Below are positions 35,494 through 37,720 of a stretch of DNA of 64,000 bases, one piece after another. The notes below the pieces were generated by a model, which was given only the letters and a program-made list of their open reading frames with translations, was not told the origin of the DNA and made no database searches. Each line of letters opens with the position of its first letter. The first letter of the stretch is position 1. The stretch lies in the NCBI RefSeq assembly GCF_058153355.1, contig NZ_CM177019.1. One strand, 5' to 3'. The translations under genes were made by a program, and so were the position numbers.

Positions 35494-36927
35494 CTAATTA
35501 TTCTGATAAATATCTTTATACAAACGGCTTTCAAAACGCACTAACGGAATGCGGCGATTACGCTGATCCGCGGGTTCTACCGCATAGCCAGAAAGATATT
35601 GTACAAACGCCATTCGTTGCCCGCTCGCTGTGGTAATGAATCCCGCCAGGTTATATACCCCCTGCAAAGAGCCGGTTTTTGCTGAGACTTTTCCGTCCAC
35701 GCCAGCCTGATGCAGGCCCGCACGGTACTGCAAAGAGCCGTCATAGCCTGCCAGCGGCAGCATAGAGATAAAGTTAAGTTCATTGTCATGTTGGGCAATG
35801 TATTGCAGCACCTGCATCATGGTGGCAGGTGCAATCAGGTTATGCCGCGAAAGCCCTGAACCATCGGCAATAATCGTGTTACCAATATCGATACCAGCTT
35901 GCTGACGCAGGATCTGACGTACGGCGTCCGACCCGGCCCGCCATGTTCCGGGCACATTGAAGCGCGCATGGCCTATCATGCGGAAAACCGTATCGGCAAT
36001 CATGTTGTCTGACTTTTTCAGCATAATCTTAAGCAGATCGTGCAACGGGGCCGACTGTTTACTGGCAACTACCGTTCCGGGTTCATTAACCTGAGTCTGG
36101 CGCAGTAGTGTTCCGCTCCAGGTGATACCTGCCTGTTTTAACTCATCTTTCAGAATTGCACCGGCATAGCTGGCTCCATCCTGTATGGCAAAAGCCAACG
36201 GGAGCGGCTCAGAACGTTGTGGCAGGCATCCGGTCAGCGTAAAGCGGTTCAGGTCGCCTGGCACCACATCCAGCTCGCAATATTGCGCTTCGGCAGAACC
36301 ACGGGGGAGGGTGCGTACCTGGCTGAACATCGTAACGGGGTAATAAGATGCCACGCGTATAAAGGCCATATCACCGGGTTTTTGGGCACTGTAGAGCGAG
36401 ACGGAGAAACAGTTGCGGTCAACTATGGCGGCGGCAGGCGGAGCGCTAAAGCATTGTGTCATGTCATTCCACGGCCAGCCGGGGGCTTTATCGTGGCTGG
36501 CAAAAATGGAGGTGTCTATCAACACATTACCATCAATTTGGTTGACGCCAGATTTTTTCAAAGTCGTGACCATATTGCGAATATCCTGACGTTTTAACGT
36601 CGGATCGGCACCAAATCGCGCCACTAAGTCACCCCTGAGTACGCCGTTTTCCACATTGCCTTTGGTTTCAAGCGTAGTAGTAAAACGAAAATCGGGGCCG
36701 AGTTGAATCAACGCCACCAGCGCAGTAATCACTTTCTGCGTACTGGCGGGCAGCGCCATCTGCTGACTGTGGTAATCAATAGCGGGGGCCGATGCGCCGA
36801 CTTTTTGCACCATCAGGGCAAGGTTGGCACCAGCGGGAAGTTGAGTAATGTACTCATCAACATTTGCGGCCTGAACACTGAACGCTATACAGCTGGTCAA
36901 TCCGATGATAAATCTGGAAAATCGCAT
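35494..36927 (-). CDS. dacB: D-alanyl-D-alanine carboxypeptidase/endopeptidase PBP4
   Basis: 477-aa ORF with signal peptide and S-x-x-K motif (STQK). Confidence 0.9.
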   Translation of the reverse strand: MRFSRFIIGLTSCIAFSVQAANVDEYITQLPAGANLALMVQKVGASAPAIDYHSQQMALPASTQKVITALVALIQLGPDFRFTTTLETKGNVENGVLRGDLVARFGADPTLKRQDIRNMVTTLKKSGVNQIDGNVLIDTSIFASHDKAPGWPWNDMTQCFSAPPAAAIVDRNCFSVSLYSAQKPGDMAFIRVASYYPVTMFSQVRTLPRGSAEAQYCELDVVPGDLNRFTLTGCLPQRSEPLPLAFAIQDGASYAGAILKDELKQAGITWSGTLLRQTQVNEPGTVVASKQSAPLHDLLKIMLKKSDNMIADTVFRMIGHARFNVPGTWRAGSDAVRQILRQQAGIDIGNTIIADGSGLSRHNLIAPATMMQVLQYIAQHDNELNFISMLPLAGYDGSLQYRAGLHQAGVDGKVSAKTGSLQGVYNLAGFITTASGQRMAFVQYLSGYAVEPADQRNRRIPLVRFESRLYKDIYQNN

Positions 36928-37009
36928 AATCTCGCGCTAACAACCTGGAATCGAGCCGTCATACTACGGCGCAACGCCCTATAAAGTAAACGATGACCCT
37001 TCGGGAACT

Positions 37010-37080
37010 TCAGGGTAAAATGACTATCAAAATGTGAATTGTAGCTGACCTGGGACTTGTACCCGGGTCGGTATTTTTTT
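37010..37080 (+). ncRNA. graL: greA leader region with intrinsic attenuator (GraL-type leader RNA)
   Basis: Hairpin GACCTGGG…CCCGGGTC followed by TATTTTTTT about 100 nt upstream of the greA start; a leader-derived sRNA is described for greA. Exact ends not determinable from sequence. Confidence 0.4.
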
Positions 37081-37174
37081 GCTTCTGGTCCCGGTGAGGA
37101 GTTTTGCCGGGCAGGCCGAACAGCCGGGGTGGGTGAAGACTTGCCCCATCAGGAATATTCAAGAGGTATAACAA

Positions 37175-37651
<477 letters not shown>

Positions 37652-37693: not shown

Positions 37694-37720
37694 GAAAAAG
37701 GCCGCTATGCGGCCTTTTAT
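37694..37720. terminator. Bidirectional rho-independent terminator between greA and yhbY
   Basis: AAAAAGGCCGC-TAT-GCGGCCTTTTAT. Confidence 0.75.

Follow-up and report, generated by a model that had tools for sequence, protein, structure and literature searches.

The window considered here is a stretch of 64,000 nucleotides of contig NZ_CM177019.1 from the RefSeq assembly GCF_058153355.1. Its list of open reading frames gives the gene order obgE (+), dacB (−, 35494–36927), greA (+), yhbY (−), rlmE (+) and ftsH (+), which, by comparison with the annotation of E. coli records, is the E. coli arrangement. The leader of greA lies directly upstream of the gene on its sense strand and is divergent from dacB, i.e. 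at the position known for GraL, the small-RNA array of the greA leader, and for the Rfam family RF01769. The features assigned to this region, together with hairpin loci from other bacteria that are discussed further below, are compiled in Table 1.

Table 1. Features of the greA leader region (window coordinates) and short-gap hairpins in comparison loci (coordinates within each locus, where given).
Feature	Position	Strand	Basis or remarks
Conserved promoter-region DNA (RF01769 positions 1–71)	36958–37028	.	upstream of or at both mapped starts; not in GraL RNA
greA P1 promoter, sigma70-type, ATGACC-N17-TAAAAT	36993–37021	+	consensus scan; +1 inferred at ~37025–37026
greA P2 promoter, sigmaE-type, GGAACTT-N16-TCAAA	37004–37031	+	exact consensus match; +1 inferred at ~37036–37037
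GraL small-RNA array, 50–60 nt from P1, 40–50 nt from P2	37026–37085	+	PMC2836576; window identical to K-12 here
Terminator hairpin, 11-bp stem (37044–37054 with 37062–37072), 7-nt loop	37044–37072	+	fold, covariation, published "11 bp stem"
Terminator tail, A-U7-G-C-U2	37073–37084	+	sequence equals published AU7GCU2; zone of multiple GraL 3' ends
Rest of greA 5' UTR, read-through mRNA only	37085–37174	+	GC-rich hairpins at ~37087–37150; Shine-Dalgarno AGAGG at 37162–37166
greA coding sequence, 158 aa	37175–37651	+	ORF list; Pfam GreA_GreB_N and GreA_GreB; RefSeq annotation of the homologous stretch
Short-gap hairpin loci (Aeromonas, Oceanisphaera, Shewanella group, Alteromonadales)	L037:1142–1170, L040, L052, L056, L064, L074, L080, L055:1130–1182, L057:1137–1184	sense	

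Since the window is about 97.2–97.9% identical to E. coli K-12 MG1655 over 12 kb, its DNA can be assigned by sequence to a divergent E. coli-like lineage. Within the leader the agreement is much closer, as positions 36928–37095, with promoters, hairpin and tail included, align with MG1655 base for base. The 251 bases around the leader (36930–37180) have a counterpart of at least 95% identity in 5425 of 5426 complete E. coli genomes; an identical stretch is absent from the complete E. coli genomes in this collection, the best matches being one base off. Three substitutions (37096, 37104 and 37147) distinguish the window from the K-12 GraL leader, all of which fall downstream of the terminator and leave the terminator itself untouched. 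The closest complete genome of E. coli that was aligned differs from the window at only one of these positions, T37104 (A in E. coli), and in the computed fold this T converts an A·A mismatch of the first post-terminator hairpin into an A–U pair.

A sequence-only reading of this DNA had drawn attention to a stable hairpin with a T7 run on the sense strand, roughly 100 nt ahead of greA, and this description is borne out. The stem arms GCTGACCTGGG (37044–37054) and CCCGGGTCGGT (37062–37072) enclose the loop ACTTGTA and form 11 pairs, seven of them G–C and three G–U. The seven T residues (37074–37080) follow an A and precede GCTT, and the distance to the greA start codon at 37175 amounts to 102 nt from the end of the stem and 94 nt from the end of the T run. 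The interval originally proposed for the element, 36990–37175, does contain the hairpin but is far too wide, as it also takes in both promoters and the remaining 5' UTR. Calculation of the folding energy, which had been suggested as a check, supports the assignment: the hairpin reaches a minimum free energy of −19.6 kcal/mol versus −10.2 ± 2.6 kcal/mol for dinucleotide shuffles (z = −3.67), only one of 200 shuffles being as good, and the pairs of the terminator have probabilities of 0.86–1.0, whether GraL is folded by itself or as part of the whole leader.

A scan against Rfam identified the region as RF01769 ("Enterobacteria greA leader") with 127.5 bits and an E-value of 1.8e-24, the match covering the model from position 1 to 124 of 124 at 36958–37079 on the plus strand, far above the gathering score of 60 bits. 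In K-12, Potrykus et al. [quoted passage not shown] The window further shares with GraL and RF01769 (PMC2836576, PMC6829880) the site before greA and the pair of promoters P1 and P2, with promoters and GraL identical to those of K-12. The hairpin is hence the known GraL terminator of the greA leader, and its recognition from sequence was correct, if not new.

For comparison, greA loci were taken from 80 species. RF01769 reached its gathering score in 22 of these, all of which are Enterobacterales or an unclassified metagenome-assembled genome; the remaining 58 stayed below it. The 22 positive loci and the window gave 23 enterobacterial leaders, which were aligned by sequence only. In this alignment, nine of the 11 stem pairs exhibit compensatory changes on both sides and 86.6% of the cells are paired. 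Such a degree of pairing was equalled by none of 500 shuffles, and it dropped to 23–59% when one arm was slid by one to three columns. These data confirm and extend an earlier observation from four species, in which pairing survived 17 of 18 stem mutations (PMC2836576). They also bear on the question of whether the hairpin could have arisen by chance or could serve a neighbouring gene as terminator. Shuffled sequences lead one to expect 1.3 hairpin-plus-T-run motifs per 1.2 kb, which would speak for coincidence; both variants nevertheless have next to no probability in light of the z-score, the covariation and the retention of the element in 5425 of 5426 E. coli genomes and 22 other enterobacterial species, and because dacB is divergent, no gene ends at the hairpin.

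Transcripts enter the element from two promoters, whose motifs are both found just upstream of the stem in a form identical to K-12. According to Potrykus et al. (PMC2836576), P1 and P2 are strong and overlapping, with starts 11 bp apart. P1 depends on sigma70, and its start was mapped by primer extension and ApU-primed initiation, while P2 is transcribed in vitro by the sigmaE holoenzyme and conforms to the consensus GGAACTT N16 TCNAA (Figure 1 legend therein). Dylewski et al. (2019, PMC6829880) specified 19 nt ahead of the terminator structure. The exact +1 bases in Table 1 were inferred from this figure in combination with the ApU priming; on this placement, about 18 nt (P1) or 7 nt (P2) would precede the stem.

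The sequence-only reading had predicted that premature termination would yield a leader RNA of about 60 nt, and it had named Northern blots or Term-seq as the means to detect it. Both types of evidence exist in the literature for K-12, so that the short transcript and the 3'-end signal, whose absence would have spoken against the idea, are documented. About two thirds of the P1 and P2 transcripts stop at the terminator, and GraL RNAs of 50–60 and 40–50 nt, respectively, are released, with 3' ends spread over about 10 nt (PMC2836576). Northern blots revealed clusters of about 55 and 45 nt, and addition of the terminator to a P1P2-lacZ fusion lowered its activity to the level of the whole region (PMC2836576). 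The Term-seq supplement of Adams et al. (2021, PMC7815308) lists a 3' end at MG1655 3,328,811(−), −96 from the greA start, with average reads of 65,239 and 61,204 in two growth conditions. This base corresponds to window position 37079, the sixth U of the run, which would lie 54 and 43 nt from the inferred starts and fits the Northern clusters.

Some features of these RNAs could be taken to indicate Rho-dependent termination, polymerase pausing or arrest, or nuclease processing instead of intrinsic termination, in particular the unusual heterogeneity of the 3' ends with their 10-nt spread (PMC2836576), and a conditional role of Rho is still entertained (PMC6829880). Such an origin of the short RNAs is nonetheless extremely unlikely. 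GraL was freed from immobilised templates by pure RNA polymerase, was refractory to GreA and GreB, and displayed the same pattern in rnc and rne mutants (PMC2836576). In the Term-seq data, the 3' end at 3,328,811(−) received a Rho score of 0.67 and the entry "No", i.e. it lies outside Rho termination regions, along with an intrinsic-terminator score of 5.2, where values of at least 3 indicate intrinsic termination (PMC7815308).

As an intrinsic terminator, the element of the greA leader resembles canonical representatives in its G+C-rich stem, short loop, U-tract and factor-independent release. It differs from them in its location within a 5' leader, only about 18 nt from the start, and in its partial efficiency of roughly two thirds. 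Moreover, canonical intrinsic terminators end transcripts at one to three positions, whereas GraL ends at about 10 consecutive positions in a manner sensitive to the bottom of the stem (PMC2836576).

The label "attenuator-type", which had been attached to the hairpin from sequence, does not hold in its classical sense. A classical attenuator or a riboswitch would require that an antiterminator, a leader peptide or an aptamer sets whether the terminator forms. The element shares with these systems its location in a 5' leader and its lowering of downstream expression, and an AUG-UGA start-stop at 37032–37037 might even call a leader peptide to mind. However, with merely 18 or 7 nt upstream of the stem, the best fold that sequesters the 5' arm attains −0.2 kcal/mol versus −18.9 kcal/mol for the terminator; as no antiterminator fold is possible, the terminator is not part of a two-structure attenuator. 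The AUG-UGA is not conserved (Citrobacter has ATAGAG and Enterobacter ATTGAA) and is absent from P2 transcripts, so attenuation by a leader peptide was rejected along with the antiterminator. For an aptamer, 18 nt are too short, and the Rfam scan returned no riboswitch family at E ≤ 1. Dylewski et al. likewise consider the element neither an attenuator nor a riboswitch, since its effector enhances rather than relieves termination (PMC6829880). Switching of this kind is thus very unlikely, and the greA-leader element is a hard-wired, partially efficient intrinsic terminator. The AUG-UGA itself, which lies within GraL at a distance of 6 nt from the 5' end of P1 transcripts, is probably meaningless.

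In outline, the further proposal that greA expression is coupled to the elongation machinery is supported, as catalytically active GreA represses greA via the leader in cis (PMC6829880). Deletion of greA raised the activity of a greA-lacZ fusion about 3.5-fold and lowered GraL about 4-fold. Repression was restored by wild-type GreA and not by the catalytically dead D41A variant; it persisted upon exchange of the promoter for lacUV5 and was abolished when the leader was cut to +10 (PMC6829880). Autoregulation by GreA hence works through the leader, and the cis element is both necessary and sufficient. GraL in trans, Hfq, Nus factors and sigmaE do not explain the effect, and a scrambled GraL sequence leaves residual regulation (PMC6829880). 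Termination efficiency was found to be constant through growth (PMC2836576). Purified GreA had no effect on termination (PMC2836576, PMC6829880), and as purified components fail to reproduce the effect, an accessory factor or an indirect route has been proposed, with a conditional role of Rho still raised as possible (PMC6829880). While nothing speaks against the identity as the GraL terminator, the residual regulation, the constant termination efficiency and the missing effect of purified GreA argue that the feedback model is not yet complete.

GraL may also have a life of its own, an aspect missing from the sequence-only reading. Its overexpression alters more than 100 transcripts and affects fitness, and nudE has been reported as a target (PMC2836576, PMC6829880). 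On these grounds, the hairpin could be regarded primarily as the terminator of an independent gene for a trans-acting small RNA, with control of greA as a by-product of read-through. This is rather improbable, albeit compatible with a leader terminator that governs greA. GraL supplied in trans is inert on greA fusions, and regulation requires the cis element (PMC6829880); no direct target had been identified in 2010 (PMC2836576); and a terminator-like hairpin is retained before greA in lineages that have an unrelated RNA sequence upstream of it, an argument for a function in cis linked to greA.

We therefore hold with high confidence that the element acts by hard-wired partial intrinsic termination, with release of GraL, read-through into greA mRNA and feedback by GreA. 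Transcripts would start at P1 (sigma70, +1 at ~37026) and P2 (sigmaE, +1 at ~37037), and RNA polymerase would meet the hairpin after only 18 or 7 nt. The hairpin should form every time, as nothing competes with it. About two thirds of the polymerases would then stop without Rho, spread across 37075–37085, and free GraL RNAs of 40–60 nt, while the remaining third would read through to give greA mRNA. In vivo, more catalytically active GreA would lead to more GraL and less read-through, independently of the promoter but dependent on the GraL sequence in cis, so that the feedback probably acts at the decision between termination and read-through in the U-tract and not at initiation. Released GraL may additionally act in trans, with nudE as the proposed target. 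Termination, release and the partition of about 2:1 have been demonstrated in published experiments on the identical K-12 sequence, as has the leader-dependent feedback by GreA in vivo.

A related logic is known from rho attenuation, in which a termination factor controls its own abundance by terminating transcription ahead of its gene, at Rho-dependent sites. The greA leader follows the same principle with an intrinsic terminator instead of a Rho-dependent one. Another parallel is the SreA SAM riboswitch of Listeria (cited in PMC6829880), which also gives rise to a prematurely ended leader RNA that combines control in cis with action in trans; in contrast to GraL, SreA possesses a ligand-binding aptamer and alternative structures.

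Since Rfam already contains a curated family and the literature covers the element with its promoters and 3' ends as well as its part in GreA autoregulation, the window adds little in this respect. GraL is nevertheless easily rediscovered. The MG1655 RefSeq annotation contains no graL feature and the name GraL does not occur in the Term-seq table (PMC7815308), which makes the element look unannotated. No paper was found that ties GraL to the Term-seq data or that describes GraL outside the enterics. The case is useful as a control, in that a real regulatory terminator was recovered from sequence alone and without tools.

Closer inspection of RF01769 revealed that a large part of the model does not correspond to GraL RNA. 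The region matching model positions 1–71 contains two invariant blocks, ATACTACGG (36961–36969) and AAAGTAAACGATGACC (36983–36998), with a variable spacer in between. RNA structure in this part, for which Rfam assigns three helices, was considered and dismissed: the 23 sequences show not a single compensatory change, pairing equals the shuffled expectation, and substitutions break pairs of the 5' helices in up to 13 of the 23 sequences. Helix 3 coincides with the −10 elements of P1 and P2. The 5' two-thirds of the model thus look like promoter DNA and not like RNA structure, a practical point for users of RF01769, most of which describes DNA of this kind. As a side observation, ATACTACGG and AAAGTAAACGATGACC resemble promoter hexamers; read on the minus strand from 36990 to 36961, they give TTTACT-N18-TAGTAT, a candidate promoter for the divergent dacB, and a similar TTTACT-N17-TATTAT is present in Aggregatibacter.

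Hairpins of comparable appearance precede greA well beyond the range of RF01769. Of 82 sequences, 50 carry a sense-strand hairpin with a U-tract within 260 nt upstream of greA; the antisense strand yielded nine, and the shuffled controls 19 out of 410. At loci with a divergent dacB, which are those of Enterobacterales and Pasteurellaceae, the share rises to 31 of 32, and because no upstream gene could end there, these hairpins belong to the greA leader. Two positional classes emerge, one about 80–145 nt from the greA start codon in Enterobacterales and one about 25–35 nt from it in Pasteurellaceae, Aeromonas, Oceanisphaera and some members of the Shewanella group. The examples from Pasteurellaceae (L031, L033, L026, L029, L035 and L045) are located about 30 nt before the ATG at 1201. 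In Aeromonas, Oceanisphaera, several members of the Shewanella group and other Alteromonadales, the hairpin and U-tract end about 17–35 nt before the ATG, and they do so irrespective of the upstream gene (motB-like in Aeromonas, dnaJ in Oceanisphaera, acrB-like in Parashewanella). As no promoter fits into a gap of about 25–35 nt, the greA mRNA must read through these short-gap hairpins. No such hairpin occurs where greA directly adjoins carB. When the upstream gene is co-directional, the hairpin may in some cases simply be its terminator. The one from Alcanivorax (L072), for instance, starts 5 nt after the carB stop codon and is thus probably the carB terminator, with no place among the leader elements. 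A promoter-like site in Aeromonas (cTGACA/CATATT), situated about 17 nt before the hairpin, recalls the E. coli layout.

In four Pasteurellaceae (L026, L029, L031 and L033; ~1031–1126), the intergenic region between dacB and greA harbours, in the orientation of greA, a match to RF02904 ("Aggregatibacter sRNA 69"). This family derives from AaHKsRNA69, which emerged from an RNA-seq screen (PMC5909427); neither greA nor GraL appears in the main text of that report. RF02904 resembles RF01769 in its strand, its place in the dacB–greA gap and the terminator-like hairpin downstream, which in L031 consists of a 12-bp stem and a U-tract at 1142–1168. It differs in that its model stops ahead of the hairpin, and the two families share no Rfam clan. 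Homology of the enterobacterial terminator with the hairpins of Pasteurellaceae, Aeromonas and Shewanella was likewise not substantiated, as these hairpins, with filters off, reached E ≥ 2.5, no better than random sites, against a covariance model built on the terminator module of the enterobacteria, which recovered only Budvicia (E = 0.0036). Given these scores, a shared stem base GCUG...CGGU is an impression only. By comparison of position and sequence, RF02904 and RF01769 appear as positional analogues and not as demonstrated homologues. It is conceivable, though we lean slightly against it, that a terminator-like hairpin in the greA leader is general across several gammaproteobacterial orders, with RF02904 as the counterpart of GraL, and that GreA homeostasis by partial leader termination is either ancient or has evolved repeatedly.

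The part of the leader that follows the terminator folds with −32.6 kcal/mol (z = −2.5). Apart from the surroundings of the Shine-Dalgarno sequence, it shows little sequence conservation among genera, and primer-extension ends within it, termed P3 and P4, are thought to be processing sites (PMC2836576). Conserved structure in 37085–37158 was considered as well and is weak at best, with z < −2 in only six of 22 species and a poor alignment. A motif GTCAGGATGA(C/G) is common to the post-terminator leaders of Yersinia, Brenneria, Pectobacterium, Pantoea and Hafnia, about 40–50 nt before the ATG (e.g. loci L019, L010, L012, L020 and L023), while Escherichia has CATCAGGAAT in the corresponding position.

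Downstream of greA, a perfect 10-bp GC-rich palindrome flanked by an A run and a T run (AAAAGGCCGCTATGCGGCCTTTT) occupies positions 37696–37718 between the convergent genes greA and yhbY. Only sub-threshold Rfam matches, to STnc420 and STnc540, were obtained for it. By its sequence, the palindrome looks like a bidirectional terminator, and a 3' end on the yhbY strand has been recorded at this site (MG1655 3,328,197 +; PMC7815308). On the greA strand, the same data set contains 3' ends at ~37822 (MG1655 3,328,068 −) and ~37898 (3,327,992) with 150,614 and 111,496 reads, respectively (PMC7815308). These lie 170–250 nt past the greA stop codon and antisense to the 3' part of yhbY, which suggests that greA-strand transcripts cross the bidirectional terminator into yhbY antisense.
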